This document shows positions 15,517 through 49,190 of a stretch of 64,000 nucleotides of DNA, in pieces; within the stretch, counting starts at the first letter, position 1, and every line of letters begins with the position of its first letter. The stretch lies in the IMG/VR virus record IMGVR_UViG_3300028275_000480, positions 1 through 64,000 of that record. One strand, given 5' to 3'. The notes below the pieces were generated by a model. The model saw nothing but the letters and a program-made list of their open reading frames with translations, was not told where the DNA came from and made no database searches. The DNA comes from a virus. Taxonomy: Duplodnaviria; Heunggongvirae; Uroviricota; Caudoviricetes. The position numbers were made by a program, and so were the translations under genes.

Positions 15517-15573
15517 CCACAATCTACAGCAGCGGGGCCACTTTGCGCCTACCGTAGACTGGTTTAAGAGCAC

Positions 15574-16554: not shown

Positions 16555-16606
16555 ACCTGTATCCTTATCTGCACACACACTCTATGTGGATCTTCTGTAA
16601 GGCCCT

Positions 16607-16957: not shown

Positions 16958-16969
16958 TTAAATACTAGT

Positions 16970-17812: not shown

Positions 17813-17832
17813 GCCCCAGCAGTAAATACTGC

Positions 17833-19022: not shown

Positions 19023-19037
19023 GAACTAAATATTTTT

Positions 19038-19660: not shown

Positions 19661-19661
19661 T

Positions 19662-20150
19662 ATGAAAATAAAAGATATTATTACAGAAAATATATTCACC
19701 ACAGATTATCATAAGGTCATGCAGGCCGTGGCTGAACTTTACAAAGAACACTATGATATTAATATTTGGGAAAATGGCGATGCTCACGATGAAGCTGCCA
19801 AAGTTCTTTTGAAAGTACATCCAACAGAAGAAGAGCTTGAAATGATTATCAGCACAGCTCAATTACCTGAGCGTTTTATGGATTTAGATTTTCCAATCAA
19901 CGATGATGTTATGTTTGGAGGTGGCACAGACGATGAAGCAGTTGCAGAAGAACCTGCATCGCGTGCCTTATGTACATCGGGAAAGCCCGATAGTGCCCTT
20001 GGAGCCAGCCAGCTTGCTTCATGCAAGAGTCAAGGGTACAGATCAAGAGAAGGCGGCAAATCACACAAGGTAGGCAGCGAACGTGTTAAAGTTAGAGGCA
20101 AAAAGATCAAAGGCAAAAAATACGGAGGCCCTTTACCTGATTGGAGTTAA
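19662..20150 (+). CDS. hypothetical protein with basic C-terminus
   Basis: 162-aa ORF. Confidence 0.5.
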   Translation: MKIKDIITENIFTTDYHKVMQAVAELYKEHYDINIWENGDAHDEAAKVLLKVHPTEEELEMIISTAQLPERFMDLDFPINDDVMFGGGTDDEAVAEEPASRALCTSGKPDSALGASQLASCKSQGYRSREGGKSHKVGSERVKVRGKKIKGKKYGGPLPDWS

Positions 20151-21531: not shown

Positions 21532-22171
21532 TCTTTCCTTGTACAATTAACACTTCCAAAGGGAATGAAAATGATTGTACAGATAGGCCTGTCAGCCCAT
21601 TTAGTTTTAATTGTTCTTCTAATTCGGTTTTGGTAAAAGCGGCTCTTAAAGAGTTTCTAAAATCTTCTTTAAATTTCTCGCCATCTAAAAAAGAAAATGT
21701 GTTTATGTAATACTCAATTGTATCTTCGCTGTCGGGTCGAGCTAGATCCAATACAAAAACATTCGATCCTGGTTTCGAAATGTTTTTTACAACGTTCCAA
21801 AAATCATTTGGGTTGTGAAAATGATGTAGAGTATTTGTAGATATAATCCAGTCATACTTTTTATCAATATCGCTAAACATTTTGTTGTATAATGTAATTT
21901 GTCTATTATCTGCAACAACAAATTCTCTAGCAAGATCTATCATAGCAGGGGAACCGTCATAACAATCAATATGAATGTTTCTAAATTCTCTAGATAATGC
22001 AAAAGAATAGTCTGCAGGACCACATCCTAAATCAGCAACATCACCTTGTACTTTGTGAGTGGCTATCTGACTAATGAAAAACTCTCTTAACCCTTCTCTA
22101 TGTGCAGAATAAAATTCCATACACTGATCAGGATCGAGCATTAATATATCCGGTTCAATAGTTCTTATCAT
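21521..22171 (-). CDS. class I SAM-dependent methyltransferase
   Basis: motif I VADLGCGPADYS. Confidence 0.7.
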   Translation of the reverse strand: MIRTIEPDILMLDPDQCMEFYSAHREGLREFFISQIATHKVQGDVADLGCGPADYSFALSREFRNIHIDCYDGSPAMIDLAREFVVADNRQITLYNKMFSDIDKKYDWIISTNTLHHFHNPNDFWNVVKNISKPGSNVFVLDLARPDSEDTIEYYINTFSFLDGEKFKEDFRNSLRAAFTKTELEEQLKLNGLTGLSVQSFSFPLEVLIVQGKIDN

Positions 22172-22791
22172 ACAGCGAATATGTTTGTACCAATAATAAT
22201 TCTATCTTCTGTAGATTGATTGGGCATAGTCTTGTGTCTTAGATATGAAGGAAAGATAACAAGGTCTCCTTCTTCAACAGGCACTTCGTAATCAAACAAC
22301 TGGTGATATGAACTTCTATTGTTAAATGAATATGGTTGATGTTTAAGTATTACTTCATTTGGGTGTTCAAAAACAAGATTGCCCGAATCTTTATTTTTCT
22401 TAAGATAAAAACTTGATGTTAACGGAACTGGACTATGATTGTGCGTATCGATAAATGACCCTGGAGCATATCGATTGGCCCACATCTCAACAATAGCAGG
22501 TTTTCCTGAATAATTTAAATGTTGCCAATATGCATTAACATGTTCTGTTAAAAATTCTAATAACCCTTGTAGTTCGGGCATTGATTGTAAATTGCGTACA
22601 ACATTATAAGAGCATAATCCACCGTTCCTCATTGAACCTTGATTGTCTTTAATTGTTTCAGCAAAGACAGGCTCAAGAAGGGGGATAACATTGTTTTGTA
22701 ATTCAACAATGTTATCTTTATATTTTGTTCTATATATTGAAATAGCAAATATATCTTCAATCATTATCTGTTCGAGCCCTACTATAATCAA
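22168..22791 (-). CDS. 2OG-Fe(II) oxygenase-like protein (TIGR02466-like paralog 3)
   Basis: IDTHNHSPVPLTSSFYL...H motif; ATGA coupling to the methyltransferase. Confidence 0.55.
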   Translation of the reverse strand: MIIVGLEQIMIEDIFAISIYRTKYKDNIVELQNNVIPLLEPVFAETIKDNQGSMRNGGLCSYNVVRNLQSMPELQGLLEFLTEHVNAYWQHLNYSGKPAIVEMWANRYAPGSFIDTHNHSPVPLTSSFYLKKNKDSGNLVFEHPNEVILKHQPYSFNNRSSYHQLFDYEVPVEEGDLVIFPSYLRHKTMPNQSTEDRIIIGTNIFAV

Positions 22792-23915: not shown

Positions 23916-24434
23916 TCACGCAGCCTTTTGTTCTGGAACTGGAACTGGTTCACCGCCGTCTGGATCGGGCGGGGTTGTGTCGTTGTCGTCGTAGAGTTGA
24001 CCTTTAAAGAATTCAAGTTGATCAATCATTTGTTGACAACCTGCCTTATTCATGGTAATCTCGCTGTAGCCCATTTGGAAACTAACACGGTTGTTGTCAG
24101 TTAGGCCCAGGCGATAAAAAATCTTAGCAGGTTCTTCTTTTTTGGGTTCTGGTTTAGGTTCTGTAGGCTCTACCAGTTTAGGAAAGTCTACAACATTGCC
24201 TTTATCTTTTTTGCCAAACAAATTGAACATTTTCTTATCCCAATTTATATCTAAATTAAACCAACGCCCCCAGGGTGGAAACACAAAGGGAGCAACTAGA
24301 ACAGATAACCATGCTATCTGTATTTGCGGTGATAGGTCTGCTTCGATAAAAAATATATCTAGCATACCTATCACTAGGTAGAGGGCACTACACCAAAATA
24401 AGTAGTAGCCCCCTGAGCGTCCGAAGATCTTCAT
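23916..24434 (-). CDS. membrane protein (possible NfeD-like partner of the SPFH protein)
   Basis: 2-3 N-terminal TM segments plus a Pro/Glu-rich tail; immediately downstream of the SPFH gene. Confidence 0.45.
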   Translation of the reverse strand: MKIFGRSGGYYLFWCSALYLVIGMLDIFFIEADLSPQIQIAWLSVLVAPFVFPPWGRWFNLDINWDKKMFNLFGKKDKGNVVDFPKLVEPTEPKPEPKKEEPAKIFYRLGLTDNNRVSFQMGYSEITMNKAGCQQMIDQLEFFKGQLYDDNDTTPPDPDGGEPVPVPEQKAA

Positions 24435-25228
24435 TACTTGTTAATCATCAAACCAGTCATGTTGCTAGGAACAACAATTGTCTGTACCTTACCGTTCTTA
24501 ATACCTTCTGAGATATTAAGTGCGGCCTGTGCGTTCATGTAAGCAATTGATTGGGCGCCTTGATTGCTCAGAGCTTGCATACGCTCTGCTTCTTTCTTAG
24601 CAGTAGCCACTTCAACTTCTTTTTGTTTGAACTCATTCTTTGCACGAACAAGAGCATTGGCTGATTCTACAACGGAGTCTGCTGGCACAACATTACGAAC
24701 AAGAACTTGTGTAATAGTAATTGAACCATCCAATTTTTCTTCTACAAGAGTTTTTTGGATTTGTTCTTTAATAGCAGTTTCCATTTGCTGACGATTGTCC
24801 GCCATGTCCAATGCTTCATACTTACGTGCTTCTTTGTAGATAGCATTACGAGCAGCATTGTAAATGTAATTAAACATTAGATAAGTATCACCGTCATGTT
24901 TAACGTGAAATGCTTTGCTTTTTGTATTGTAAAGTTCTGCTACCTGTGCTTGGTTCAAACTATAGATAACAATAGCATCAAAGTCTTTCATTGTGCTGTT
25001 ATCTTTGGCAATAGGAGTCATGTCATCCAGTTTGACGTTAACATCCTTAACCGGGAATGTAAGAACATCTCCAATAATGGTTTGATTAAAACTGCCAGGC
25101 AAGAGCTCATCATTCTTAACTTGTTTGTCAAAGCCGACCCGCAGACCAACTTCACCAGTTTCAATACGAGTACAGCCAGTGGCCAAAATAGCCGCGGCAA
25201 GGATAGAAAGAGTTGCAATACGCTTCAT
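24434..25228 (-). CDS. SPFH/Band-7 domain lipoprotein
   Basis: lipobox ATGC; TGEVGLRVGFDK... prohibitin-like core and coiled-coil C-terminus. Confidence 0.55.
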   Translation of the reverse strand: MKRIATLSILAAAILATGCTRIETGEVGLRVGFDKQVKNDELLPGSFNQTIIGDVLTFPVKDVNVKLDDMTPIAKDNSTMKDFDAIVIYSLNQAQVAELYNTKSKAFHVKHDGDTYLMFNYIYNAARNAIYKEARKYEALDMADNRQQMETAIKEQIQKTLVEEKLDGSITITQVLVRNVVPADSVVESANALVRAKNEFKQKEVEVATAKKEAERMQALSNQGAQSIAYMNAQAALNISEGIKNGKVQTIVVPSNMTGLMINK

Positions 25229-28657: not shown

Positions 28658-29248
28658 CTAAAATGTTCTATGGAATGTGTGAGGATTTGGGCTAATGTTT
28701 ATACTCATAACGATCCGATCATCGTTTGAGTTGTTTTTTTGAGTTTTATGTAGCATCCAACCTGGGAACATTAATACATCTCCCGTTTGGACTTCAACTT
28801 CTTTCCAAGGAAGCTCAACTCTAAGACTTCCGCTCCAAATATGAAACATTGGATCAAAAATTTCTAAGTTTCCACCGTTGGCAGGTTGTTCAACATATAA
28901 AACGCAGACCAACGGAACACTACCGTGAGTGTGTTCGTCAGTCCATCCGTTAAAAGGATGAAGGTTAACCCAACTAGAGCTTATTGATAAGTCACATTTT
29001 GGAAGTTGCCATTCAGCCCAAACTTTTTCTATCATTGGTCCCGCCCAAACAAGAAAATCGTTTGATTCTTCCCAGTAGTGAGGCGCATCGGGATCGGAGG
29101 AAGAACTTATCCCTCCGTCCCGTTCTACTCTGTTATTAAGTTGTGATCCAGTTTTGAGTTTATGAGAAGCTCGTTTAACCAACTCACTTAGGTCACCAGA
29201 ATAATGGCCTTTCCATACAACCGCTGGAGATAGACTGATCGGAGTCAT
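28658..29248 (-). CDS. 2OG-Fe(II) oxygenase-like protein (TIGR02466-like paralog 4)
   Basis: TDEHTHGSVPLVCVLYV...H motif. Confidence 0.55.
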   Translation of the reverse strand: MTPISLSPAVVWKGHYSGDLSELVKRASHKLKTGSQLNNRVERDGGISSSSDPDAPHYWEESNDFLVWAGPMIEKVWAEWQLPKCDLSISSSWVNLHPFNGWTDEHTHGSVPLVCVLYVEQPANGGNLEIFDPMFHIWSGSLRVELPWKEVEVQTGDVLMFPGWMLHKTQKNNSNDDRIVMSINISPNPHTFHRTF

Positions 29249-29859: not shown

Positions 29860-30795
29860 ATGAGCAAATTAATGATCACTGGAGCAAATGGGTTTCTTGG
29901 ACGCAATGCTACCCCATTCTTAAAACAAATGTTTGACGAAACGGTATTGATTGATAAACCTCCGTTCTTATGGGACCAAAGTGTTCGAGAAGGGTGGTCG
30001 CACAATAATCAAATACATTATTGCGATATAACAGAAGATATTCCAGTTTTAAAAGAACATCTTAAAGAAGTTGATGTTGTTGTTCATATGGCCAATCGAT
30101 CTAGGATTGATCCTAGTTGGAATGAGTACGCTGAATACTATAATGTAAACATAACAGCAACACATAAATTTTTTAGTTTATGCCAAACTATGGGTGTAAG
30201 GAAATTTGTTTATATAAGTTCTAGCTCAGTGTATGGAAACAACGGTACAATCAAACAACGAGAAGATAGCCAATTGATGCCAACCAATCCTTATGCTGTG
30301 AGCAAGATGTCTGCAGAATGGGCACTTCACGTGCAGAGTCTTGTTGGGGATACAGAATTAATAATAATAAGACCTTTTACCATGTACGGAGACTTTATGG
30401 ACTTTGGCAAAAACGCATTAGTGATTCCAAAGTTTATTTCTGCCTGGGAAACCAATCAACCGTTGTTGTTACACGGCGGTGGTGATCAACGCAGAGACTT
30501 TGTTCATGTTAGTGATGTTATCAAAGGTCTTATGATTGTTCTAGAGTACGGTGAACACGGAGACGTATTCAATTTAGGATCAGGCCAATCTGTAAGTATC
30601 AAACAATTGGCAGACATTATTAGTCATAGACAAATAGTTGTTCCGCCACGTGTTGGAGCAGTAGCAAATACAGAAGCAGATATTACAAGATTAGCCGAAC
30701 TGGGTTATAAACCAAATGTAAAGGTATTACGATGGTTGACGGACCTAATGGAAGAGCTTAAACTAAAAAATATTTCTAACATTAAGGAAGCATAA
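29860..30795 (+). CDS. NAD-dependent sugar-nucleotide epimerase/dehydratase
   Basis: Rossmann motif ITGANGFLG; YxxxK; 311 aa. Confidence 0.8.
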   Translation: MSKLMITGANGFLGRNATPFLKQMFDETVLIDKPPFLWDQSVREGWSHNNQIHYCDITEDIPVLKEHLKEVDVVVHMANRSRIDPSWNEYAEYYNVNITATHKFFSLCQTMGVRKFVYISSSSVYGNNGTIKQREDSQLMPTNPYAVSKMSAEWALHVQSLVGDTELIIIRPFTMYGDFMDFGKNALVIPKFISAWETNQPLLLHGGGDQRRDFVHVSDVIKGLMIVLEYGEHGDVFNLGSGQSVSIKQLADIISHRQIVVPPRVGAVANTEADITRLAELGYKPNVKVLRWLTDLMEELKLKNISNIKEA

Positions 30796-31383
30796 ATGAG
30801 TTTAGTACCAATGGTAGTTGAGTCTACATCAAAAGGCGAACGTGCATACGATATCTATAGCAGATTACTTAAAGAGCGTATTGTCATGTTAACAGGTGAA
30901 GTTGAAGACCACATGGCAAATATTGTAGTTGCACAACTATTATTTTTAGAAAGCGAAAATCCAGATAAAGAAATTAGTCTGTTTATTAATAGCCCAGGTG
31001 GTGTTGTTACAGCAGGCATGAGCATTTATGACACAATGCAGTTTATTAAATGCCCTGTGGCTACCTACGTTATGGGACAGGCTTGTTCAATGGGAAGTTT
31101 GTTAGCACAAGCAGGAGCAGAAGGTAAACGTTATATGTTGCCAAACGCTCGTCACATGATTCATCAACCCAGCGGCGGCGCCCGTGGTCAAGCTACAGAT
31201 ATTCAAATTCAAGCAGAAGAGATTTTAAAAATGAAAAAGAATCTTACTGAGATTTATGTTAAGCATAATTCAAAAGGTAAGACCTACGAAGAGTTTGCTC
31301 GCGACATGGAACGTGATAAGTTTATGTCAGCGCAAGAAGCTCTTGAATATGGACTCGTTGACAAAATCATCGAGAAACGATAA
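30796..31383 (+). CDS. clpP: ATP-dependent Clp protease proteolytic subunit
   Basis: full-length similarity, catalytic Ser in GQACSMGS and His in HQP. Confidence 0.85.
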
Positions 31384-31784
31384 TGACAAGACAAGAAGGT
31401 AAAGTAGATAAAGGATGGGGTTGCGAAATTATTTGGGCAACCAACGACAAGTACTGCGGTAAGATTATGGTCTTTGAAAAAGCAGGTGCTAAGTTTAGTA
31501 TGCACTTTCATAAAGAAAAAGACGAAACATGGTTTGTAAACGCAGGAAAATTTAAATTGGTTTGGTGCGACACAAAAACAGCAACCTATCACGAAAAATT
31601 CTTAAATGAAGGTGATACTTGGCATAACCCTCCTATGATGCCTCATCAACTTATTGCTCTTGTACCAAACTCAATGATATTTGAAGTTAGTACAGCAGAT
31701 AGTGTAGAGGATAACTATCGAATCATTCCCGGAGACAGCCAAAGTGCAACAACAGAACAACCAGCCACAGAACAACCAGCCTAA
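31383..31784 (+). CDS. cupin-domain protein (possible sugar isomerase/epimerase)
   Basis: conserved His/Glu cupin motifs; C-terminal TEQPA repeat. Confidence 0.5.
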   Translation: MTRQEGKVDKGWGCEIIWATNDKYCGKIMVFEKAGAKFSMHFHKEKDETWFVNAGKFKLVWCDTKTATYHEKFLNEGDTWHNPPMMPHQLIALVPNSMIFEVSTADSVEDNYRIIPGDSQSATTEQPATEQPA

Positions 31785-32367
31785 GATTACCTGGACTGGT
31801 GGCGAGTTTAGAACAAAGTGTGTAATAGGCTTAGATCGTGACGGAGTTATTAATCGCGATCTAGGTACCTATTGTTATCGTGTTGAAGATTTTGATCCAA
31901 TTCCTGGCAGCGTTGATGCAGTTGCTGAACTTAGACGTAAAGGTTATAAGATTGTAATCATTACAGATCAAGGGGGAATTGAAAAGGGTATCTATACACA
32001 AGAACAAGTAGATACATTGCACACACATATGCTAGATTTGTTTGGCAAGGCAGGATGTTCTAGTATCGATGCAATATATTATTCTGCTAGCTCACGTAAA
32101 GATGATCCGTTTGCAAAACCAAATACTGGAATGTTTAAGAGATGTGAAAAAGAAATTCCAGATATTAAATTTAATCAAGGTTATTATGTAGGCGATAAGA
32201 TTAAAGATCTTAAAGCAGCAGTTAAGATGGGTTCAAAACCTGTGTTAGTTAGAACAGGTTATGGCCTTGAAACAGAAAAAGAATTAAACAAATTCACTTA
32301 CAGAGAATTAAAGCGTCGAACTATTATATTTGACGATCTTGCAAGTTTTGTTAACTCGTTACCATGA
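31744..32367 (+). CDS. gmhB: HAD-IIIA phosphatase, D,D-heptose 1,7-bisphosphate phosphatase-like
   Basis: GLDRDGVIN DxD motif; GTG start is uncertain and overlaps the cupin gene's 3' end. Confidence 0.65.
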   Translation: MQQQNNQPQNNQPKITWTGGEFRTKCVIGLDRDGVINRDLGTYCYRVEDFDPIPGSVDAVAELRRKGYKIVIITDQGGIEKGIYTQEQVDTLHTHMLDLFGKAGCSSIDAIYYSASSRKDDPFAKPNTGMFKRCEKEIPDIKFNQGYYVGDKIKDLKAAVKMGSKPVLVRTGYGLETEKELNKFTYRELKRRTIIFDDLASFVNSLP

Positions 32368-32762
32368 AACAAATAATAGTCAATGGAACTTTTGATATAT
32401 TGCATAGAGGACACATAGAATTATTAAACTATGCAAAGTCTGTTGGCGATCGTTTGCTAGTTTGTATTGACAGCGATGCTCGTGTAAATTTTCTTAAAGG
32501 GCCGGGCCGCCCTATTAACGATCAATGGGATCGTATGCTTATGTTACAGAATTTAAAATCTGTAGATGATGTTAAGATTTTCAATACTGAAGAAGAACTT
32601 ATCTCAATAATTAAAAGCATTAGGCCTGTAACTATGGTAAAAGGCAGTGACTACCGCAATAGATCGATTGTGGGAGAAGAATACTGCAATGAAATATTAT
32701 TTTATGAACGAACAAATCACTCAACTTCCAAAACAATACAGGATATTATTGATAGGGGATAA
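32364..32762 (+). CDS. cytidylyltransferase-fold nucleotidyltransferase (RfaE/HldE domain II-like)
   Basis: GTFDILHRGH HxGH motif. Confidence 0.7.
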   Translation: MKQIIVNGTFDILHRGHIELLNYAKSVGDRLLVCIDSDARVNFLKGPGRPINDQWDRMLMLQNLKSVDDVKIFNTEEELISIIKSIRPVTMVKGSDYRNRSIVGEEYCNEILFYERTNHSTSKTIQDIIDRG

Positions 32763-33465
32763 AGGTACAGACATTTACACATACGGAAGTGTGAATAGGA
32801 TTAGTCCTGAAGCTCCAATACCTGTGTTCAATCCACATGGACATACTTACAAAGCGGGTATGGCCGACAACGTTAGAGAAAATTTAGAAGCACTTGGGTG
32901 CAATGTAAATTTCCTCTACGGGGAAACTAGCGAAAAAGAAAGACTTATCGATCGACGCAGTAAACAACAGATAGTTCGAATTGATAGAGATAAGAAAAGT
33001 GATCCTATTAGGTTTGATACTCCTATTCCTAATTTTTATGATGCAATAGTAATCAGCGATTATAACAAAGGAACCATTACCTACGAACTTGTTGAAGAAA
33101 TTAGAAAAGAATACAAAGGACCTATTTTCATTGACACTAAAAAAACAGACCTTGTTAGGTTCGAAGGCTGTTATGTAAAAATAAATGAATTAGAAAAAAG
33201 CAAGGCTATTACATTACCAAACAGCAAATGGTTAATTGTTACTCTTGGCGAAGATGGGGTTCAATATTTGGATAATAAACTAACCCCTAAAAAAGTTCCA
33301 TTGGTTGATGTAACAGGAGCAGGCGATACTTTCTTAGCTGCATTGACCTACAAATTTTTAGAAACAGAAAATATGATGCAAGCATTAGAGTTTGCCAACA
33401 ATGCATCATCAATTACGGTACAGCACGTTGGATGTTATGCACCAACATTAGAGGAAATACTATGA
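32689..33465 (+). CDS. PfkB-family sugar kinase (RfaE/HldE domain I-like heptose kinase)
   Basis: ILLIGDKGTD...SPEAPIPV; GAGDTF motif; start uncertain (32647 to 32704). Confidence 0.7.
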   Translation: MKYYFMNEQITQLPKQYRILLIGDKGTDIYTYGSVNRISPEAPIPVFNPHGHTYKAGMADNVRENLEALGCNVNFLYGETSEKERLIDRRSKQQIVRIDRDKKSDPIRFDTPIPNFYDAIVISDYNKGTITYELVEEIRKEYKGPIFIDTKKTDLVRFEGCYVKINELEKSKAITLPNSKWLIVTLGEDGVQYLDNKLTPKKVPLVDVTGAGDTFLAALTYKFLETENMMQALEFANNASSITVQHVGCYAPTLEEIL

Positions 33466-34331
33466 TTATACTCACAGGAGCAGCAGGCTTTATTGGAAGT
33501 TATATTTTAGGTTATCTTAATAAACAAGGAATCGAAGATGTTTACCTCTTTGATGATATGCCTTATGGAGATCAATATAAAAATTTAATTGGCAAAAAAT
33601 ATAAAGGACTATACTCTACTAAAGAAATTATAGACAATCTATCTGCGTTCGATTGTGTTATCCATTGCGGAGCAAATGCAAGTACACTAGAAAGAGATTG
33701 GTCTAGCATCTACGAATCCAATATTGTTAGTACAAGAAGATGGCACGACCTTTGTAAGCATTACGGAAAAAAGTTTATATTCATGTCAAGCGCAGCAGTA
33801 TACGGCAACGGAAACGGTCCTGTTAACCACTATGCTTTTAGTAAACTTACCTGCGAACAAGAAATAACTAATGGTGTAATACTTCGATTATTCAACGTCT
33901 ACGGACCAAATGAATATCACAAAGGTCGTATGGCTAGTACGCCCTTTCATTGGTACCGTCAATTAGAAAACAATTTAATTTTAAAAATATTCAACAACTC
34001 AGAAAATTATCTAAGAGATTTTATATATGTCGAAGATGTGGCTAAAACCGTACATCATTTTATTAACAATTATAAAGAAGGTCTCTACGACCTTGGTACT
34101 GGTAATGCTGTAAGTTTTGATCGAGTTGCAGATCTTTGCTTACAAGAGATTGGATATGGCACAAAAATATCTATTGACATGCCAAATGATCTTAAAGAAC
34201 AATATCAAGAATACACCTGTGCATCAGTCCAGTTTTTAGAGGATGCTGGTGTTGATGTTAAAGGATTCTTTAATATAGATCAAGGTATTAAAGAATATTT
34301 TAATTACTTAAAGACTAATCAAATTTATTAA
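33462..34331 (+). CDS. hldD: ADP-L-glycero-D-manno-heptose-6-epimerase-like NAD-dependent epimerase
   Basis: [13 protein letters not shown] and YAFSK motifs; ATGA overlap with the kinase. Confidence 0.7.
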
Positions 34332-35517
34332 ACACCGCAGTAAGAGCAATGACTAAATCTTCAATCATTCCGTCGTCGTGATATGGAGTGGGTGCAAATC
34401 GTAATCTTTCAGTACCTACATCAACCGTAGGATAGTTAATTGGTTGAACATAGATGTTGTGATCATTTAACAGCATATCGCTCATTGCTTTACACTTCTT
34501 AGCATCTCCAACAAGCACAGGAATAATATGAGTGGTGGAACATTCCATAACAGGAATTCCTGCTTTCTTTAATCTATGTCTTAATTTACGAGCACGTTCT
34601 TGATGTTTCTCTCGAACTTCGTTATGCTCTTTTAAGTATTTGATTGCAGCCAACGCACCGGCACAGGTAACAGGGCTCATAGACGTAGTAAAAATGAACC
34701 CTGCAGCCACTGATCGGATAGCATCAATTACATCTGCATCGGCAGCAATATATCCACCTTGGACACCATACGCTTTACCAAGCGTTCCGTTAACTATGTC
34801 AACTCGGTCCTGGAACCCTAACTCTTCTAATTTACCAGCGCCGCGCTCACCGTATAGCCCTACCGCATGTACTTCGTCAATGTAAGTGATAGCATTGTAT
34901 TTGTCTGCTAGATTACAAATTCCTCTTATGTCTCCAACATCACCATCCATAGAATATACACTTTCAAAAACAATACAAGGAGTATGGCCAGCAAGTGTAG
35001 CAGCAACTAATTTGCTTTCTAAATCTTCTAGGTTATTGTGTTCAAATATTTGTTTAGGAGCTCGACTATGACTCATTCCTATAATTAAACTATTGTGATT
35101 TTTACTATCGCTGATAAAATGAATATTAGGCACAATCTTGCTTAGAGCAATAAGAGTCCATTCGTTGGCCACATATGCAGAGCTGAATAATAAACTGCTC
35201 TGTTTATTATGCAGAGTGGCAAGCTCGTGTTCTAAGGCTTTATGATAGTGACTAGACCCGCCAATATTGCGAGTGCCTCCTGAACCAGATCCTGTGTGAT
35301 CTAGAGCGGTGTGCATAGCATCTAGCACAACTTTATGCTGGCCCATGCCCAAATAATCGTTTGAACACCAGTTTACTATGTTCTTAATGTTATAAGGCCC
35401 GTACCAAATAGCTGTAGGAAATTTTCCAGCTTCTCTAACAATATCATTAAAAACACGATATTTTCCTGATGCTTTAAGATCCTGCAATAGTTTTTTAAAA
35501 GGTTCTTTGTTTATCAT
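34315..35517 (-). CDS. 5-aminolevulinate synthase-like class-II aminotransferase (ALAS/AONS family)
   Basis: [11 protein letters not shown] and [10 protein letters not shown] motifs typical of ALAS; 400 aa; 17-nt convergent overlap with hldD. Confidence 0.75.
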
Positions 35518-37999: not shown

Positions 38000-40900
38000 A
38001 TGACTATTCAAAAGATTAAATCTGGGCGTATACCTGGCCAAGACGTAGAATTTTACGTTGGTGCTCACGGACAACTATTTTACGACGAAGATACGGGTAT
38101 TTTACGTATTTCCGATGGAGTAACACCAGGGGGAACCGTTGTCAGCGGAGGAACAGGCGGGGGAACTTATACATTACCCACAGCAACAACTACCGTAAAA
38201 GGTGGTGTTAAAATTGACGGCACCACTATTAACATTGCTAATCAAGTTATCAGTGTGGGTACCGTTCCATATGCTAGTATTTCAAATGCACCCACAGCAG
38301 TCTCAGCATTTACTAACGATAGCGGATACATTACTTCAAGCGCCTTATCTAGTTATGCTACACAAACTTATGTAACTACTCGTGGATACATTACATCGGC
38401 AGGCATTCCTAGCGTAGTTAGTTCCTTTACTAACGATAGCGGATATGTAACTTCTAGTAGCTTTGATCTAGATACCATTGACTTTGATACTAACAATAAA
38501 CTGCATGCCACAGGAGTATTACCAGGTGATGCTGAAGGTTTCACTGCTATATTTGCAGGCCGCGCCGCAGGTGTAGCTGCACTACCTAACACCGTTATCC
38601 AAAGTCAAGCGCAGGTTAACGACTACGCACAGAACAACTTTCAAAATACTAACGATGGCAATCACGCAAGTACAGAATGGGTAGCAACAAGTCCAAACGG
38701 TAGCGACACAGACTACTATATTGATTTAGGTATTAACGGAGCAAGTTGGGACGGCACAGCAGAGAATAGTTTATATGATAATGTAGGACAGCGTGATGGA
38801 TGGTTGTATGTGCAAGGAGGTAATGCTGGCGGTGGTAACTTAGTACTTGGCACAAGTATTGCCAATACCTATACTAAGATTATTGCAGGTGATGCATCAG
38901 CAGGCAATAAGGAAGTTGTTCGCTTTAGTGAAACAGAAGTTAAACTATCTAAACAACTAACATTCAGTGACAACACAACACAGACTACAGCTTGGACTGG
39001 GTCTGTTAGTTGGAGCGATGTTACCAGCAAGCCTACAATATTAACAACTTTAAATAGTTTAGATGATGTGACTACCGTGGGAGCCACAGACGGTCAAGTC
39101 TTAAAATATAATGCCAGCCTTAGCATATGGCAACCAGCAGCTGACCTAGTAGGCAGTGGTGGTAGTGGTATTGGACTCACTGACTTATCAGCATCGAATG
39201 CTTCAGCCAGCGGTGGAGGAAGTTTAAGTTACAACAATACTTCGGGGGTGTTTACATTTACACCGCCTAACCTAACATCTTATGTAACTAATAGCTCGCT
39301 GTCGTCTACGCTATTGACCTATGCTACACAGACTTATGTTACTAGCCAAGGATATATTACTAGCTCGGGTAATGCCGCAACAGCAACTAAATTAGGAACT
39401 GCTCGTGCTATCAACGGAATAAATTTTGATGGTTCTGCTGCTATTACTATCACCGCAGTAAATCCTAATGCACTAACTATTGGCACAGGACTCAGCGGAA
39501 CAAGTTATGATGGTAGCACAGCAGTTACCGTAGCAGTTGATAATACTATAGCACGTAGAGCAGATACTACCTATGTTGGTACAACCAGTATTGCCCTAAA
39601 CAGATCAAGTGCTAGCCAAACACTAACAGGTGTAAGTATTGACGGCAATGCCGATACGGTGACCAACGGTGTTTATACCACAGGCACATACGCAAATCCA
39701 GCGTGGATAACAAGTCTAGCCTACAGCAAGTTAACTGGGACCCCTACAATCTTTAGTGGTAGTTATACAGACTTAACTAATAAGCCAACTATACCTACAA
39801 ATGTAAGCCAATTAGCCAACGACAGCGGATACATTACCGCCGCAGCAATACCGGCACAATTTACATTTAATGTAGCAGCCGATGATAGTTCATTAAAAAC
39901 TATTAGTAGTCAAGAAACAATTAAGTTTATAGGAGCTAATAATATTACAACATCCAGTGATGCTGAAGGCAATATCACCATCACTGGCCCAACACTAACA
40001 GGTTATGCAACTAAGACAGGTGCTGAAACTTTAACTAGTAAAAACATTAGTGGCTCAAGTAATACTATTACCAACATTGCCAACTCGAGTTTGTCTAATA
40101 GCTCTGTTACCATTGGTACTACATCAATATCATTAGGCAGTTCGTCAACTACACTTGGCGGAATGGCATGGATTACATTTGCTGGTAGCACTAGCGGCAC
40201 AACACAATTAAGGCCTAGTGCAATAGCTGGTACAACAACCGTTACAATGCCAGGAACAACTGGCACACTGATTACTACAGGCGATACCGGCACGGTTACA
40301 AATGCTATGTTAGCAGGCAGTATTGCCACAAGCAAGATTACTGGGTTAGCTACGAGTGCTACCACAGATACAACAAATGCTTCTAATATTACCAGCGGAA
40401 CATTACCTAATGCACGACTAAGTTCCGTTCCAAATAGCGCATTAGCAAACAGCAGTATCTCTGTCAATGGCACAAGCATTTCTTTAGGTGGAAGCGGCAC
40501 TATTACCGTTAATAGTATTTCAGCAAGTGGTTTTACTGGCGTATTAGGATTTGATGCTTCCGGCAGTTTAATACTAAGCAATACAAATAAGTTTAGAAGT
40601 CCGTCTGGATTGATCATTGAAACCGGAACATCCCCATTAAAAGATTGGACATTTGGAACTACTGGTAGTTTAACATTTCCAGATAATACCACACAGAGCA
40701 CCGCTTATACCGGCAATGCCGATACCGTAACCAATGGTGTTTATACCACCGACACCGGCACGGTCACAAACACAATGCTGGCAGGATCTATTGCCAATTC
40801 TAAGTTGGCAAATAGTTCAGTAACGATTAATGGCACAAGTATCGCACTAGGTGCAAGTGCTACTATTACAGCGGCCGCGGGCACACTAACCGGCACAACA

Positions 40901-42154
40901 TTAAATTCAACCGTAGTAACTTCAAGTTTAACCAGTGTTGGCACACTAACAAGTTTAACAACTAGTGGAACTATTACTAGTAGTAAAACGGGAACCGCAA
41001 CACACGGAACAGGTGCACAACTTTATATTAACGGTTCTACTTATAGTAGAATAGACTTTAACAATGTCTATGGGGCTCCTACCGTAACTGATAGATCTAC
41101 AGGAACCAGAATATTATTCAATCCAGATATAGCAGTGAATAAAATGGATTGTGCTATCGGTATGTCAACTGATACCTTATGGTCCTCTGTTCAAGGCCCT
41201 AACTTCAACTTTGGTTGGTATGCTGGCGACGGATTAGGCTTTGCTGGTTCCAACGCCCCAGTTACACTTCTTACCTTATCGGGTGCTGGTGTCTTAACGA
41301 TTCCAGGAACAACAAGTGTAACTAATAACTCTGCTACTAATAAGACTCTCAATATTGGCACACACGGACAACTTTTTGACGACGGCAACCTTCATATTCA
41401 TACCAGCAGTGGAACATTATGGATCAATAGTTTAGATAGTAGTGATATTAGTATTGGAACTCAATATAACAGCGGATCTGGATCAAGTGTAAACATCGGT
41501 AAGAATCTAGTGGCCAACAGCGGTAGTGTAACAGCTAATGCTACCACAGCGTTCATTGCTGGAGATAATGCTGTCAGTGGCGTTGCACTACAAATGCCTA
41601 ACGAAGGCGCTCTTCGTAACTTGAAGAATGGTAGTACCAATATGTACTTTGACGTTAGCATTGGTGGATCAACTCAAGGATCATTCCAGTTCCGTTCGAG
41701 CAGTTCGTATACCAATGTGCTGACAATGAGCAGCACGGGTGTTACATTTAACACTGACGCAACCTTTACATCGAGAACACCGTCAGTATCAAGAACGGCA
41801 TACAACGCAGCCATAGATACTGAGATTACCTTGGATAATATGCGTTTCCGCATCAGCAATCAAGGGGGTATATTCCCACAGGTTATTGGCAACGGTTCGT
41901 CAAGAAATCTTGCTTGGACTGGTGTGGGTGCTATCAATGGTGCAGCCGTTGCTCAAGCAGGTAGCACTGGCACAATCGTATCTACTTCTGCCTGGACTAC
42001 ATTGTATAATCTACACGGTATGGATGCCGCTGGTGATACCGTTACCGTTACACTACAGGATAAGGCGGCAGGTCGTATCTATCGCATTACATTCATGCGT
42101 AGTGACAACGGTAGCACAACAGGCTACAACATCATTGGCGAGAGAATATTATAA
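38000..42154 (+). CDS. tail fibre protein (large, repeat-containing)
   Basis: 1384 aa, Thr/Ser/Gly-rich with repeated TNDSGYITS and NADTVTNGVYTT segments. Confidence 0.8.
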   Translation: MTIQKIKSGRIPGQDVEFYVGAHGQLFYDEDTGILRISDGVTPGGTVVSGGTGGGTYTLPTATTTVKGGVKIDGTTINIANQVISVGTVPYASISNAPTAVSAFTNDSGYITSSALSSYATQTYVTTRGYITSAGIPSVVSSFTNDSGYVTSSSFDLDTIDFDTNNKLHATGVLPGDAEGFTAIFAGRAAGVAALPNTVIQSQAQVNDYAQNNFQNTNDGNHASTEWVATSPNGSDTDYYIDLGINGASWDGTAENSLYDNVGQRDGWLYVQGGNAGGGNLVLGTSIANTYTKIIAGDASAGNKEVVRFSETEVKLSKQLTFSDNTTQTTAWTGSVSWSDVTSKPTILTTLNSLDDVTTVGATDGQVLKYNASLSIWQPAADLVGSGGSGIGLTDLSASNASASGGGSLSYNNTSGVFTFTPPNLTSYVTNSSLSSTLLTYATQTYVTSQGYITSSGNAATATKLGTARAINGINFDGSAAITITAVNPNALTIGTGLSGTSYDGSTAVTVAVDNTIARRADTTYVGTTSIALNRSSASQTLTGVSIDGNADTVTNGVYTTGTYANPAWITSLAYSKLTGTPTIFSGSYTDLTNKPTIPTNVSQLANDSGYITAAAIPAQFTFNVAADDSSLKTISSQETIKFIGANNITTSSDAEGNITITGPTLTGYATKTGAETLTSKNISGSSNTITNIANSSLSNSSVTIGTTSISLGSSSTTLGGMAWITFAGSTSGTTQLRPSAIAGTTTVTMPGTTGTLITTGDTGTVTNAMLAGSIATSKITGLATSATTDTTNASNITSGTLPNARLSSVPNSALANSSISVNGTSISLGGSGTITVNSISASGFTGVLGFDASGSLILSNTNKFRSPSGLIIETGTSPLKDWTFGTTGSLTFPDNTTQSTAYTGNADTVTNGVYTTDTGTVTNTMLAGSIANSKLANSSVTINGTSIALGASATITAAAGTLTGTTLNSTVVTSSLTSVGTLTSLTTSGTITSSKTGTATHGTGAQLYINGSTYSRIDFNNVYGAPTVTDRSTGTRILFNPDIAVNKMDCAIGMSTDTLWSSVQGPNFNFGWYAGDGLGFAGSNAPVTLLTLSGAGVLTIPGTTSVTNNSATNKTLNIGTHGQLFDDGNLHIHTSSGTLWINSLDSSDISIGTQYNSGSGSSVNIGKNLVANSGSVTANATTAFIAGDNAVSGVALQMPNEGALRNLKNGSTNMYFDVSIGGSTQGSFQFRSSSSYTNVLTMSSTGVTFNTDATFTSRTPSVSRTAYNAAIDTEITLDNMRFRISNQGGIFPQVIGNGSSRNLAWTGVGAINGAAVAQAGSTGTIVSTSAWTTLYNLHGMDAAGDTVTVTLQDKAAGRIYRITFMRSDNGSTTGYNIIGERIL

Positions 42155-45793: not shown

Positions 45794-45886
45794 AAACACC
45801 CTACCTTAGGACGTTATCGTTACTATAGGGTTGCCCGGCTGCTGGGCAGGGGATTATGGGAGTCGTGCCCCGGAATGGTCCCCTAA

Positions 45887-46549
45887 GTGAGCTTTTATAA
45901 AGACCGTGGCATGAAGATAGCGTTATTTGTGCATCAACCTAAATGTTCAATAGAGTCTGGGAACGGTATTCTCGAAGCACTTCAACCATATCATAAATTT
46001 AAATTATTCACTAAATGGGATCTTGACGATAACTTTTTTGATGATGTTGATATGATTGCTATTCCAGGAGGTTTTGGAGATAGCGAAAGTTGGCATTATC
46101 TAATGCGTAATCATACGACCCGTATAAAAAAGTTTATTCAAGACGGTGGAAAATATCTAGGAATATGTATGGGAGCATATTGGGCAGGCAAACACTATTT
46201 TGATATTTTAGATAATGTTGACGCTGTTCAATATATCACTCGTCCAAACACCGACACCCGTAGACCACATGCAAAAGCAATTAATATTAATTGGTTAGGA
46301 CAACAAGAACGCATGTATTTCTATGATGGATGCGCATTGATCGGTGATAATAAAAAATTTCAAACAATAGCAACATACGCCAATGGAGATCCTATGGCTA
46401 TTATTCAAAATAATATAGGATTAATAGGTTGCCACCCTGAAAGTCAACTTAATTGGTATACAGAACATTATAGTTGGATGAAACCGCATTATCATCAAGG
46501 AAAACACTATAAATTGCTGTTAGATTTTGTTGATCAGTTAGATACCTAA
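45887..46549 (+). CDS. class-I glutamine amidotransferase-like domain protein
   Basis: GICMG nucleophile-elbow motif. Confidence 0.5.
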   Translation: MSFYKDRGMKIALFVHQPKCSIESGNGILEALQPYHKFKLFTKWDLDDNFFDDVDMIAIPGGFGDSESWHYLMRNHTTRIKKFIQDGGKYLGICMGAYWAGKHYFDILDNVDAVQYITRPNTDTRRPHAKAININWLGQQERMYFYDGCALIGDNKKFQTIATYANGDPMAIIQNNIGLIGCHPESQLNWYTEHYSWMKPHYHQGKHYKLLLDFVDQLDT

Positions 46550-46596
46550 AAGGTCTTAATGGGCCATAAATACTGGATCACAGAAGGAGGATCCAA

Positions 46597-47871
46597 ATGG
46601 ACCAACGTACACAGAGACAGCAAGAACTACAACAAGATTGGGCCACAAACCCAAGATGGAACGGTATTAAACGACCTTACACAGCAGAGGATGTAGTACG
46701 CCTACAAGGCAGCAAAATACATCCGAGCCAGTTCGCTGTTGAACAAGCAAACAAATTATTTAAACTTCTTCACACAGAAGATTATATTAATACACTTGGT
46801 GCCTTAACAGGTATGCAAGCATTACAACAAGTTAAAGCAGGATTAAAAGCAATTTATCTATCAGGATGGCAGGTAGCAGGCGATGCTAATTTAGCAGGAG
46901 AAATGTACCCTGATCAAAGTTTGTATCCAGCTAACTCGGTCCCGTCAGTAGTTCGTAAGATTAATAATACATTTCGAAGAGCAGACCAGATTGCTTGGAG
47001 CGAAGGCAAAGAACAAGATTTTTATGCTCCAATAATTGCCGATGCCGAAGCTGGGTTTGGCGGAGTGTTAAATGCATTTGAATTAATGAAAGCTATGATC
47101 GAAGCCGGTGCAGCCGGTGTACATTTTGAAGATCAGTTAGCCTCAGTAAAAAAATGCGGACATATGGGAGGAAAAGTACTTGTACCAACAAGAGAAGCTA
47201 TTAACAAATTGGTTGCTGCTCGTCTTGCTGCTGATGTCATGGGCGTGCCTACTTTGGTTATTGCCCGTACTGATGCCGAAGCAGGCGATCTTATCACTAG
47301 TGATGTTGATGATAATGATCGTCCTTTCCTTACTGGCGAAAGAACCGTTGAAGGATTTTATCGTACAAAGAACGGATTTGAACAAGCAGTCTCAAGAGCC
47401 GTTGCCTACGCACCCTACGCCGATCTTGTATGGTGTGAAACAGGGAAACCTGATCTTGATTTCGCAAGAAGATTTGCAGAAGAAGTACACAAACACCATC
47501 CAGGTAAAATGTTAGCCTACAACTGCTCGCCATCATTTAACTGGAAGAAGAACCTAGACGATGCAACCATTGCAAAGTTTCAACGCGAATTAGGTGCGAT
47601 GGGTTATAAGTTTCAATTTATTACTCTTGCCGGATTCCATAATTTAAACAACGGTATGTTTGAATTAGCACATGGATATGCCCGAGAAGGAATGACCGCT
47701 TTTGTAAAAATGCAAGAGCAAGAATTTGCAAATCAGGCATTAGGGTTTGAGGCAGTAAAACATCAAAGAGAAGTAGGAACAGGATATTTTGATCGTGTTA
47801 CTACAACCATCGAAGCAGATGCTTCTACTCAAGCACTAGTTGGTAGCACAGAGGAAGAACAATTTCATTAA
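46597..47871 (+). CDS. aceA: isocitrate lyase
   Basis: KKCGHMGGK signature; close full-length similarity to E. coli AceA from memory. Confidence 0.9.
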
Positions 47872-47874
47872 TGT

Positions 47875-48459
47875 ATGATAGTATATATTCATGGTGCAAG
47901 TGCAACTGCCGCAAGTTTTACGCACATTAGACAATATGTTAGAGACACATTTGAAGAACCCGACATCATGCTTGAATATAAGAGTGATGACGGGTTTATG
48001 CACAACCTTAATCAAATGAAAGGTCAACTCGACGATGCTGACCGATTGTTCTTTATTAGCCATAGTCTAGGTGGTATCTATTCTTTGTATTTGGCTAATC
48101 ATTATAAAGAAACTACACACGGCGGTGTAAGTTTAAGCACACCCTACGGTGGAAGTAAAGAAGCAGATTTTGCTCGTTACTTCCTGCCTTTTAATAGGCT
48201 AATGAAAGATGTAGGCACCATGAGTAAACCAATGATAGTGGCTAGAGATTTACCTGCCCCACCAAATTGGACTCAGGTTGTTACCACGGTTGGTCAGAGT
48301 CCTTGGATACATGAGCCCAATGACGGGGTAGTTACTCTAGAGAGTATGCGTTACAGACAAGACTTTGAACAAATTGAAGTCCCTTTAAATCATTATGAAG
48401 TTGTTATTAGTGATCAAGTAGTTAACATTATCCTAGACAGGATAGGGAAATTTTTATGA
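47875..48459 (+). CDS. alpha/beta hydrolase (lipase/esterase-like)
   Basis: GxSxG motif HSLGG. Confidence 0.6.
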   Translation: MIVYIHGASATAASFTHIRQYVRDTFEEPDIMLEYKSDDGFMHNLNQMKGQLDDADRLFFISHSLGGIYSLYLANHYKETTHGGVSLSTPYGGSKEADFARYFLPFNRLMKDVGTMSKPMIVARDLPAPPNWTQVVTTVGQSPWIHEPNDGVVTLESMRYRQDFEQIEVPLNHYEVVISDQVVNIILDRIGKFL

Positions 48460-49160
48460 TAGAATTTATATATACTCTGGTAATGGTACAAATTACCATT
48501 GCCTGTGTTACTCTATATTTGCATAGAGGTCAAACACATCGAGCAGTACAATTTCATCCTTGGGTTGAACACTTTATGCGTTTTTGGTTATGGTTAACTA
48601 CAGGAATGATCACAAAAGAATGGGTAGCAATACATAGAAAACATCATCAATATGCAGATAAAGAAGGTGATCCTCATAGCCCTTTAATTTTTGGAATTAA
48701 AAATATAGTGTTCAACGGAGTACGGTATTACGGAATAGCCAGTAAAGACAGAGATATGATCGATAAACTTGGCATTGGTACTCCAGATGATTGGATTGAA
48801 CGCAATGTTTATACTCCCCACCCCCTAGCAGGAATTCTTTTAATGTTGGTCATAGACCTTGTTCTTTTTGGTCTTGTTGGGGTAGTAGTGTGGGGAGTTC
48901 AAATGATATGGATTCCTTTCTTTGCAGCAGGAGTTGTGAACGGAATAGGACATTGGTGGGGGTATCGTAATTATGATGTCAAGGACAATAGCAGAAATAT
49001 TTTTCCTATTGGATTTTTAATTGGCGGTGAAGAATTACATAACAACCACCACGGAGATGGCGCTAACCCTAAACTGAGTCGCAAGTGGTTTGAGTTTGAT
49101 ATAGGTTGGTTGTATATTAAAATTCTTGAAAAATTAAACTTAGCAAAAATTAGATCATAA
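48456..49160 (+). CDS. membrane fatty-acid desaturase (stearoyl-CoA/delta-9 type)
   Basis: three His boxes HRGQTH, HRKHH and HNNHH. Confidence 0.8.
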   Translation: MIEFIYTLVMVQITIACVTLYLHRGQTHRAVQFHPWVEHFMRFWLWLTTGMITKEWVAIHRKHHQYADKEGDPHSPLIFGIKNIVFNGVRYYGIASKDRDMIDKLGIGTPDDWIERNVYTPHPLAGILLMLVIDLVLFGLVGVVVWGVQMIWIPFFAAGVVNGIGHWWGYRNYDVKDNSRNIFPIGFLIGGEELHNNHHGDGANPKLSRKWFEFDIGWLYIKILEKLNLAKIRS

Positions 49161-49163
49161 TGA

Positions 49164-49190
49164 AAGGGCCCCGAAGGGCCCTTTCTTTCT
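49164..49190 (+). terminator. rho-independent terminator (bidirectional hairpin)
   Basis: aaagggccccgaagggcccttt followed by a T-rich run. Confidence 0.6.

Follow-up and report, generated by a model that had tools for sequence, protein, structure and literature searches.

Do the metabolic genes that lie side by side in this viral DNA make up one pathway, and what would an isocitrate lyase do there during infection? The window, by which we mean the whole analysed stretch of 64,000 nucleotides, carries four consecutive plus-strand genes at 45887-49160, which the earlier note had read as a single block leading from fatty acids through acetyl-CoA to the glyoxylate shunt. The features concerned are as follows.

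45911..46549, plus strand: GATase-fold protein, 212 aa, stand-alone class I glutamine-amidotransferase fold
46597..47871, plus strand: isocitrate lyase (ICL), 424 aa, gene 1 of the cassette
47875..48459, plus strand: alpha/beta-fold serine hydrolase (ABH), 194 aa, compact and cap-less, in the variable middle slot
48456..49160, plus strand: DesA-type membrane Δ9 fatty-acid desaturase (DES; Δ9 predicted), 234 aa, short form with the catalytic core only
49162..49185, plus strand: hairpin resembling an intrinsic terminator, 10-bp stem with 7 GC pairs, GAAA-type loop, T-run
34315..35517, minus strand: viral 5-aminolevulinate synthase (vAlaS), a known auxiliary metabolic gene (AMG), given as context outside the cassette

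The positions of the four genes were borne out except for the start of the first, for which 45911 is probably a better choice than the GTG at 45887 taken earlier. In the remainder of the block, one feature is the tight packing of the genes: ICL and ABH are 3 nt apart, and the stop codon of ABH and the start codon of DES share an ATGA overlap. Another is the Shine-Dalgarno sequence AGGAGG ahead of the ICL start (46597). The last is the hairpin at 49162-49185, which has a folding energy of -19.9 kcal/mol (z = -4.37; 0 of 200 shuffles folded equally well) and is placed between convergent genes, at the end of the plus-strand unit. On this layout, the ICL-ABH-DES unit of the window is predicted to be 46597-49160, closed by a strong terminator at 49162-49185. 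An Rfam scan for riboswitches and other regulatory RNAs returned two tRNAs only, and a scan for sigma-70 promoters was uninformative, the sites being fewer than in the shuffled controls. The window's ORFs of at least 500 aa encode only NrdA, a tail-spike-like protein, and an unannotated protein of 1384 aa that had no match in Pfam, NCBIfam, or PHROG. The GC content of the window moves from ~47% to ~38% near 20 kb, a transition spanned by independent assemblies.

If host metabolic genes had been mis-joined to phage sequence, by assembly or by bacterial contamination, this GC shift and the 75-80% identity of the ICL to Burkholderiales enzymes would be accounted for. However, the exact ICL protein is indexed in 69 blocks, its 20-kb context is identical in independent ENA and JGI assemblies, and the GC transition is likewise crossed by independent assemblies. 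Phage hallmark genes flank the metabolic genes on both sides, the comparison with every relative shows saturated synonymous sites, and the ICL clade described below contains phage sequences only. We regard such a chimera as next to impossible: the locus has been assembled identically and independently in many samples, and its source is a large freshwater T4-like phage. It was thus found that a host-type metabolic gene resides within a bona fide phage genome and is kept there by selection, as is expected of a phage AMG. Against 50,697 phage records, megablast of the 43-52 kb region gave no match, and tblastn of DES gave none at E ≤ 1e-5. The "phage" ICL matches among those records were mostly bacterial contigs or short fragments; the sole genuine-looking one was in Phage C48C1 (58% identity, annotated as hypothetical).

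The identities given to the genes in the earlier note (an ICL, a Δ9-type desaturase, a GATase-fold protein, and a serine hydrolase with a lipase-like elbow) were supported by profiles and motifs. The ICL scored 778.5 bits against NCBIfam NF011645 (equivalog cut-off 562) and 355.5 bits against Pfam PF00463 (cut-off 26), and its best PDB match was 3i4e, a Burkholderiales ICL (732 bits), with which the catalytic regions are identical in the alignment. The KKCGHMGGK loop (aa 185-193; nt 47149-47175) is intact, including the active-site cysteine, whose loss by substitution had been named as a sign of an inactive enzyme. The conserved metal- and substrate-binding segments, whose roles we take to be those known from the M. 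tuberculosis ICL structures, are all present and are also identical to those of 3i4e. By profile score and catalytic motifs, the window ICL is therefore predicted to be a bona fide isocitrate lyase (EC 4.1.3.1).

As to the donor lineage, the window ICL falls in a phage-only clade of 46 sequences, sister to Burkholderiales, with a bootstrap value of 70/100 in a tree built by neighbor joining only, in which the bacterial side was represented by the best 80 among the pattern-search matches listed. Among those matches, the genomic ICLs of Burkholderiales share 75-80% identity and the length class with the window ICL, whereas the window-type ICLs form their own clade and occur next to a desaturase in phage genomes, an arrangement found in none of 80 bacterial ICL loci. 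The dN of the ICL against its viral homologs is ~0.09, with dS saturated, and the cassette genes as a whole have dN values of 0.09-0.22 with saturated synonymous sites (ungapped hits); all the genes are under strong purifying selection. In addition, a second phage ICL lineage, which has 60-62% identity to the window ICL and keeps KKCGH, occupies the same slot and adjoins an ABH that is 83-84% identical to that of the window. These sequences indicate that phages acquired an ICL on several occasions and that, at the ICL slot of this cassette, one lineage has taken the place of another.

DES passed the profile of the DesA family (NF049918) marginally, at 404.2 bits against a cut-off of 400, covering positions 11-240 of 385, and it scored 51.1 bits against PF00487 (cut-off 29.7). 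All the di-iron ligand motifs of the SCD type are present, namely HRGQTH, HRKHH, NGIGH (NxxxH), and HNNHH, and DES aligns to SCD1 (4ymk) over all of the histidine boxes and NxxxH. The ligands H23/H28, H60/H63/H64, N162/H166, and H195/H198/H199 are invariant among 83 viral homologs. Candidate membrane-spanning hydrophobic segments were located at aa 1-23 and 118-161 by Kyte-Doolittle windows of at least 1.6. We assign DES to the DesA-type membrane Δ9 fatty-acid desaturases on these sequence grounds, its Δ9 regiospecificity being a prediction. DesA of Pseudomonas aeruginosa is a phospholipid Δ9 desaturase that acts on phospholipid acyl chains (PMC10634369). The two proteins have in common the family-level score, all of the histidine boxes, and the N-terminal start on the profile, whereas the phage enzyme stops short of the last ~150 residues of its bacterial counterparts and so does not match the full-length bacterial DesA architecture (234 vs ~385 aa). 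Its closest homologs (n = 120) are all 224-239 aa long, and the nearest non-self relatives are forms of 360-413 aa with 55-59% identity. The region that the short form is missing contains no desaturase domain; since the C-terminal extension of the long bacterial DesA proteins matched nothing but an ISL3-transposase-like sequence, weakly and in 2 of 5 cases, it offers no functional clue. Cyanophage lipid desaturases, which have been proposed to adjust host membrane lipids, are likewise phage-borne membrane fatty-acid desaturase AMGs (PMC5776448). DES differs from them in belonging to the proteobacterial DesA family and in its short length, and desaturases of its type are found on freshwater phages together with an ICL of betaproteobacterial type.

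For the middle gene, the alpha/beta-hydrolase fold was found, and the residues of a Ser-Asp-His triad, in HSLGG (S64), NDGVV (D150), and NHYE (H173), are shared without exception by 38 homologs; this triad was read from the sequence, D150 lying in a low-confidence loop of the structure model. ABH stayed below the curated cut-offs of Abhydrolase_6 (18.6 vs 26.3) and Hydrolase_4 (16.9 vs 27) and matched nothing in NCBIfam or PHROG. It resembles family I lipases weakly in sequence, and its fold neighbors are lipases, esterases, thioesterases, and perhydrolases. ABH is thus predicted to be a compact alpha/beta-fold serine hydrolase of lipase/esterase-like character, the substrate class being putative. 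In other viruses the slot is often held by a divergent class II aldolase-like partner (Ald), for which no NCBIfam equivalog was found (the best was MtnB, 49 vs 137 bits) and whose conserved Glu and His residues may form a metal site.

How often do these genes occur together? On viral contigs, 32 non-redundant loci with both ICL and DES were found: ICL-Ald-DES in 19, ICL and DES abutting in 6, ICL-ABH-DES in 3, ICL-ABH-Ald-DES in 1, and a reversed order in 2. Phage contigs that carry the cassette include ones of 153, 327, and 365 kb. From this comparison, the conserved core appears to be ICL–X–DES, in which X is variable. The proposal that the four genes form one block did not survive it: the middle gene is aldolase-like in 19/32 loci and a hydrolase in 3/32, and ICL occurred in 0/79 loci found with the GATase-like gene as an independent seed, among which DES occurred in 18/79. 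This first protein scored above the Pfam cut-offs of BPL_N (42.2; cut-off 24.2) and GATase (31.9; cut-off 22.8) and below that of GATase_3 (25.3; cut-off 27), and a PDB sequence search with it gave nothing meaningful. Its motifs are GICMG (aa 84-88) and CHPE (aa 174-177), of which the His and Glu are at least 97% conserved and the Cys 70-95% among 18 viral homologs; the structure model was not usable (pLDDT 41.8). The GATase-like gene is an accessory-island neighbor of the cassette, not an ICL partner or a core member.

The same loci bear on the simplest alternative, in which the GATase-like gene and the three genes that follow it are AMGs that act independently of one another and have merely accumulated in a single hyperplastic accessory island of these phages. 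Viral contigs with DES outnumber those with ICL about fivefold (at least 569 vs 113), and ICL is present in only 6/79 of the DES-seeded loci; the desaturase therefore plainly functions without ICL. The neighborhood also gathers unrelated genes, such as those for an SNase, an LpxH-like phosphoesterase, and a GIY-YIG-like protein, and a middle gene that varies (aldolase-like, hydrolase, or none) suits a loose island no less than a pathway. However, start/stop overlaps and gaps of 0-5 nt recur in many of the loci, the adjacency of ICL and DES has been re-created with each of two ICL lineages and with either gene first, and DES lies no more than 8 kb away in 40% of the ICL-seeded loci, in most of these within 1.5 kb. 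The frequencies conditional on ICL, DES, or AlaS seeds are biased by the seeding and were re-tested with the independent GATase seed above and with ABH, for which DES was found in 9/18 loci and ICL in 4/18. We consider independent accumulation a possible explanation, though a less than likely one. At the other extreme, ICL–X–DES may be a true functional module that couples isocitrate diversion with O2-dependent desaturation, X processing an ICL product (e.g., glyoxylate) or a lipid intermediate, under selection strong enough for an unrelated ICL to refill the slot; we hold this only tentatively and think it rather unlikely. The reading that we prefer, with some confidence, is that 46597-49185 is a co-transcribed and translationally coupled three-gene auxiliary metabolic cassette, a variant of the recurrent ICL–X–DES, which would work as described further below.

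In the original proposal, a phage lipase would free host fatty acids, host β-oxidation would degrade these to acetyl-CoA, which the phage ICL would pass into the glyoxylate shunt. Classically, ICL indeed serves cells that grow on fatty acids or acetate. ABH has the lipase-like elbow, the weak similarity to family I lipases, and lipases and esterases among its fold neighbors, and it directly follows ICL in the window, as it does in at least 7 loci elsewhere. Nevertheless, neither a malate synthase (AceB/GlcB) to accompany the ICL nor fad genes of β-oxidation were found in the 64,000-nt window, and none occurred within the inspected ±10 kb flanks of relatives, the Malate_synthase Pfam being absent from those of four related contigs. 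Most cassettes are without ABH, which in the ABH-seeded loci tracks DES over ICL, and its fold matches esterases, thioesterases, and perhydrolases equally well. The desaturase, moreover, is anabolic for membrane lipids: it makes unsaturated lipids instead of degrading them. The fatty-acid route to the shunt is, on this balance, improbable. The ICL itself had been called notable as a phage-borne shunt enzyme, but such genes are already published: as AMGs in marine viromes (PMC4053976), in an aceBA operon of a T4-like Tara genome (PMC5332604), and as 98 ICL genes in 98 huge phages, those of freshwater being without malate synthase, as in the window (bioRxiv 10.1101/2025.02.27.640493). The published ICLs, like that of the window, are full-length, catalytically intact, and carried by large aquatic phage genomes; they are paired with malate synthase or treated alone, whereas the window ICL is the first gene of a tightly packed cassette whose other members are a desaturase and a middle gene that varies.

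The earlier note had passed over the ICL–X–DES core, the repeated entry of ICL with replacement at its slot, and the vAlaS gene 11 kb upstream. 5-Aminolevulinate synthase uses glycine and succinyl-CoA. ICL could thus supply this phage Shemin enzyme for haem if host enzymes converted glyoxylate to glycine and succinate to succinyl-CoA. The vAlaS of the window is a strong match (571.6 bits against TIGR01821; cut-off 338.55), 98 viral contigs carry its relatives, and 12/80 of the AlaS-seeded viral loci, on a syntenic backbone, have ICL within 10 kb. A vAlaS was shown to be functional in a freshwater phage by a study that first came upon the gene on a scaffold recruited with viral desaturase sequences as bait (PMC11480375), and for Polynucleobacter an amination of glyoxylate that yields glycine has been put forward (PMC7522526). 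The phage backbone of the window likewise carries vAlaS, although ICL goes unmentioned in that vAlaS study and the window gene lies outside the cassette (PMC11480375). Against the haem route, ICL bypasses succinyl-CoA, and repression of aceA in AlaS-expressing E. coli raised 5-ALA by 10.5-15% (PMC9951541). In the window, 11 kb with structural genes separate ICL from vAlaS, which is encoded on the other strand; 68/80 AlaS loci have no ICL within 10 kb, and AlaS lies within 8 kb in 3/80 ICL loci. Weakened by the E. coli engineering data and by this weak co-localisation, the idea that ICL feeds vAlaS appears improbable.

Returning to the cassette of 46597-49185, we infer its physiological rationale as follows. 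During infection, the phage ICL would split isocitrate into succinate and glyoxylate, bypassing the two TCA steps that release CO2 and NADH; carbon would therefore stay in the form of C4 acids for biosynthesis (aspartate, nucleotides). The glyoxylate would be disposed of by host enzymes, malate synthase or others; it has fates besides the malate synthase reaction, which is why an ICL can be of use even where that enzyme is missing (PMC6779741). In parallel, DES would use O2 and its di-iron centre to introduce Δ9 double bonds into the acyl chains of existing membrane phospholipids, in the manner of DesA, which would maintain membrane fluidity without new fatty-acid synthesis. The most likely substrate of ABH, working next to the desaturase, would be an acyl ester.

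Neither an ICL nor a desaturase is a new kind of AMG for phages; the novelty lies in a tightly packed cassette of the two that recurs in many large freshwater phages, on contigs of ~150-365 kb. In the literature searched, we found neither a recurring pairing of ICL with a desaturase nor a mention of ICL-lineage replacement at one slot. The phage-specific ICL clade and the lineage replacement point to sustained selection for combining a bypass of TCA steps with the remodelling of membrane lipids, for which we propose the infection of oligotrophic freshwater bacteria as the context. The cassette also offers clonable targets: a minimal DesA-type desaturase of 234 aa, a minimal hydrolase of 194 aa, and the aldolase-like partner. 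Finally, the retention of ICL in phages without malate synthase raises the question of the fate of glyoxylate in infected cells.

Four consecutive plus-strand ORFs were read in the window where the earlier note had placed them. These genes, together with a viral 5-aminolevulinate synthase gene, are listed below.

45887/45911-46549 (+): GATase-like protein (GAT); BPL_N 42.2 bits and class I GATase 31.9 bits, above the Pfam cut-offs
46597-47871 (+): isocitrate lyase (ICL); NCBIfam equivalog 778.5 bits against a cut-off of 562
47875-48459 (+): small alpha/beta-hydrolase (ABH); sub-threshold Pfam matches only
48456-49160 (+): short DesA-type desaturase (DES); NCBIfam DesA-family 404.2 against a cut-off of 400, which is barely reached
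34315-35517 (-): 5-aminolevulinate synthase (AlaS); TIGR01821 571.6 against 338.55 bits

The identification of the second gene as an isocitrate lyase was borne out by every sequence criterion: besides the equivalog score, PDB 3i4e matches it with 732 bits and identical catalytic regions, and the catalytic loop KKCGHMGGK is intact (residues 185-193). The HSLGG elbow claimed for ABH is present, yet all Pfam scores of this protein fall below threshold. In DES, the three expected histidine boxes (HRGQTH, HRKHH and HNNHH) were all found together with an NGIGH motif; the alignment of mammalian SCD1 covers all four, and each metal ligand is invariant among viral homologs. The DES match spans positions 11-240 of the 385-position DesA-family profile. 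Its 120 closest homologs are all 224-239 aa long, the nearest non-self representatives are proteins of 360-413 aa (55-59% identity), and the extra C-terminal region of the latter contains no desaturase-related domain. Judging from these lengths and this domain content, the phage DES is a minimal catalytic core. As for GAT, the ATG at 45911 is its start in the gene calls on identical contigs, and homologs do not conserve the first eight residues of the GTG-started form; thus, 45911 is most likely the start. GAT homologs share an invariant His and Glu, and most of them keep the Cys; a single-sequence structure model was unusable.

The ICL stop codon (TAA) is followed after 3 nt by the ATG of ABH, the ABH stop and the DES start overlap (ATGA), and the DES stop is followed by a GC-rich hairpin of 10 bp and a T-run (-19.9 kcal/mol, z -4.4). 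This compact layout ending at a putative terminator is consistent with co-transcription.

In the IMG/VR scan, ICL relatives turned up on 113 viral contigs and relatives of the short DES on at least 569. DES was found at most 8 kb away in 32 of 80 viral loci seeded with ICL (i.e., collected by its relatives), and in none of the 80 best bacterial ICL loci. After redundancy was removed, 32 viral loci carried both genes: ICL–class II aldolase-like–DES accounts for 19 loci, abutting ICL and DES for 6, ICL–ABH–DES (the form in the window) for 3, the order DES–ICL for 2, and ICL–ABH–aldolase-like–DES and a distant placement for 1 each. The aldolase-like form also occurs on phage-like contigs of 153, 327 and 365 kb, with intergenic distances of 0-95 nt. 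The conserved unit is ICL–X–DES, where the middle gene X varies or is missing. The association is asymmetric, since ICL occurs in only 6 of 79 DES-seeded loci; by this count, DES is the commoner gene and would clearly function without ICL.

The middle gene of the 19 loci, which is absent from the window, encodes a divergent protein of the class II aldolase/adducin fold (~212 aa; PF00596, 96 bits); examples are L326 11275-11928, L324 11320-11952 and L325 11370-12017. Its E86, H109/H111 and H181 do not vary and resemble the catalytic Glu and the Zn ligands of FucA. No NCBIfam equivalog was reached (best MtnB, 49 vs 137 bits).

Since seeding with ICL, DES or AlaS biases the neighbour frequencies, independent ABH and GAT seeds were used. 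DES was found in 9 of 18 ABH-seeded loci, directly abutting ABH in 8 of the 9, and ICL–ABH–DES was found in 4 of the 18; GAT-seeded loci contained DES in 18 of 79 cases and ICL in none of the 79. These counts make ABH a recurrent partner of DES, while GAT shares the accessory island and is not an ICL partner. The view of the four genes as one block was thus not upheld.

The best cellular ICLs among the matches listed belong to Burkholderiales and other Betaproteobacteria, with at most 79.7% identity to the window ICL, and many viral ICLs are 80-92% identical to it. In the phylogeny that the earlier note had called for (neighbor joining, 150 distinct sequences, 100 bootstraps), the window ICL falls inside a clade of 46 sequences, all of them viral (bootstrap 70/100), whose sister is the Burkholderiales group; at least three further viral clades stand apart from it. 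Six related loci (L329, L331, L333, L334, L248 and L249) carry an ABH 81-84% identical to that of the window downstream of a same-slot ICL of only 60-62% identity, whereas in the window's own clade ABH of 84-85% pairs with ICL of 88-89%. The second ICL lineage (402 aa) keeps KKCGH and is not especially close to the Burkholderia enzyme; in its loci, e.g., L331 4793-7292, start/stop overlaps occur between all three genes. From these identities, it looks as if the ICL at this slot was replaced by, or captured from, a different lineage (xenologous replacement), and such exchange at one position points to selection for the presence of an ICL at this place. In addition, dN against viral homologs is 0.09-0.22 for all four genes and AlaS, with saturated synonymous sites (pS 0.65-0.8), which indicates long-term purifying selection within phages.

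A phage-borne ICL had been considered notable in itself, but such genes are already published: Pacific viromes contain them (PMC4053976), a 179-kb T4-like Tara genome has an aceBA operon (PMC5332604), and 98 were counted in 98 huge phages, with malate synthase beside ICL restricted to samples from marine, soil and plant-related sources (bioRxiv 10.1101/2025.02.27.640493). Cyanophage desaturases are also known (PMC5776448). Full-text searches for ICL with desaturase and phage, and for ICL with aminolevulinate synthase, found no account of the ICL–X–DES arrangement. New here are the recurrence of the ICL–X–desaturase cassette, an ICL clade confined to phages, the apparent exchange of ICL at one slot and the minimal form of DesA. 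Phage C48C1 (L001, OQ984149.1, 44175-45416; Kyanoviridae) encodes a homolog of ICL, with 58% identity across 94% of the query, that was deposited as a hypothetical protein only.

Virion structural proteins of the window have T4-like cyanomyovirus relatives; a tail-spike-like protein, class I RNR, an ATP-dependent ligase and two tRNAs are encoded as well. The index of the assembly collection lists the exact ICL protein in 69 blocks, and independent ENA and JGI contigs share an identical context of 15-20 kb. The GC content drops near 20 kb, from ~47% (1-20000) to ~38% (20000-64000); independent JGI and ENA assemblies bridge this transition and agree in gene order, which marks it as native to the phage and not a mis-join. 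An assembly chimera, raised earlier as a concern, is excluded by both observations. Other features of the window are as follows.

17833-19022, 22168-22791 and 28658-29248: 2OG-Fe(II) oxygenase-family genes (Pfam annotations on identical contigs)
24434-25228: Band_7/SPFH gene (Pfam annotation on identical contigs)
29860-34331 (+): cell-envelope sugar cluster of NAD-dependent epimerase/dehydratase, ClpP (30796-31383), GmhB-like heptose bisphosphate phosphatase, HldE-kinase-like protein and HldD-like ADP-heptose epimerase; all score under equivalog cut-offs, and together they would form a coherent LPS-heptose pathway set
38000-42154 (+): 1384-aa ORF adjoining a virion structural gene; no Pfam, NCBIfam or PHROG match, 100% conserved on independent contigs, not found in the fetched related viral loci
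45794-45910: 117-nt intergenic region upstream of GAT, locally GC-rich, with the near-palindrome GCCCGGCTGCTGGGC; no Rfam match
59937-60494 (+): Fe/Mn superoxide dismutase-like gene directly 3′ of nrdA (Sod_Fe_C 81.4 and Sod_Fe_N 36.1 bits, both over Pfam cut-offs), a further putative oxidative-stress-type AMG

The oxygenases, the di-iron desaturase and the dismutase would together give an unusual density of iron-/O2-dependent enzymes.

The cassette encodes an intact ICL, a serine hydrolase and a DesA-type desaturase core. The proposed fatty-acid-to-glyoxylate route lacks its key enzymes, both in the window and in the ±10 kb inspected in relatives. A minor alternative is that ICL products supply substrates of the phage AlaS, encoded 11 kb upstream of ICL; this is vAlaS, the viral AMG of the Shemin pathway, which works in a freshwater phage (PMC11480375). 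The products are one step from these substrates, and ICL lies within 10 kb in 12 of 80 AlaS-seeded loci on a syntenic backbone whose gene order, ClpP – heptose genes – AlaS – virion protein, recurs across many IMG/VR contigs; the alternative ranks as minor because ICL bypasses succinyl-CoA and because aceA repression raises the 5-ALA yield of AlaS-expressing E. coli (PMC9951541). In the preferred reading, the phage ICL would split isocitrate into succinate and glyoxylate, which would spare carbon and lower NADH output, and host enzymes would remove the glyoxylate; bacterial ICL can suffice without malate synthase (PMC6779741). DES may act on existing phospholipids as DesA does (PMC10634369), and membrane fluidity would thereby be kept without new fatty-acid synthesis; ABH may work with DES on an acyl ester. 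In Polynucleobacter, a freshwater betaproteobacterium, UV stress induces ICL and cold induces a desaturase (PMC7522526), and by this analogy a stress and maintenance role would fit the cassette.
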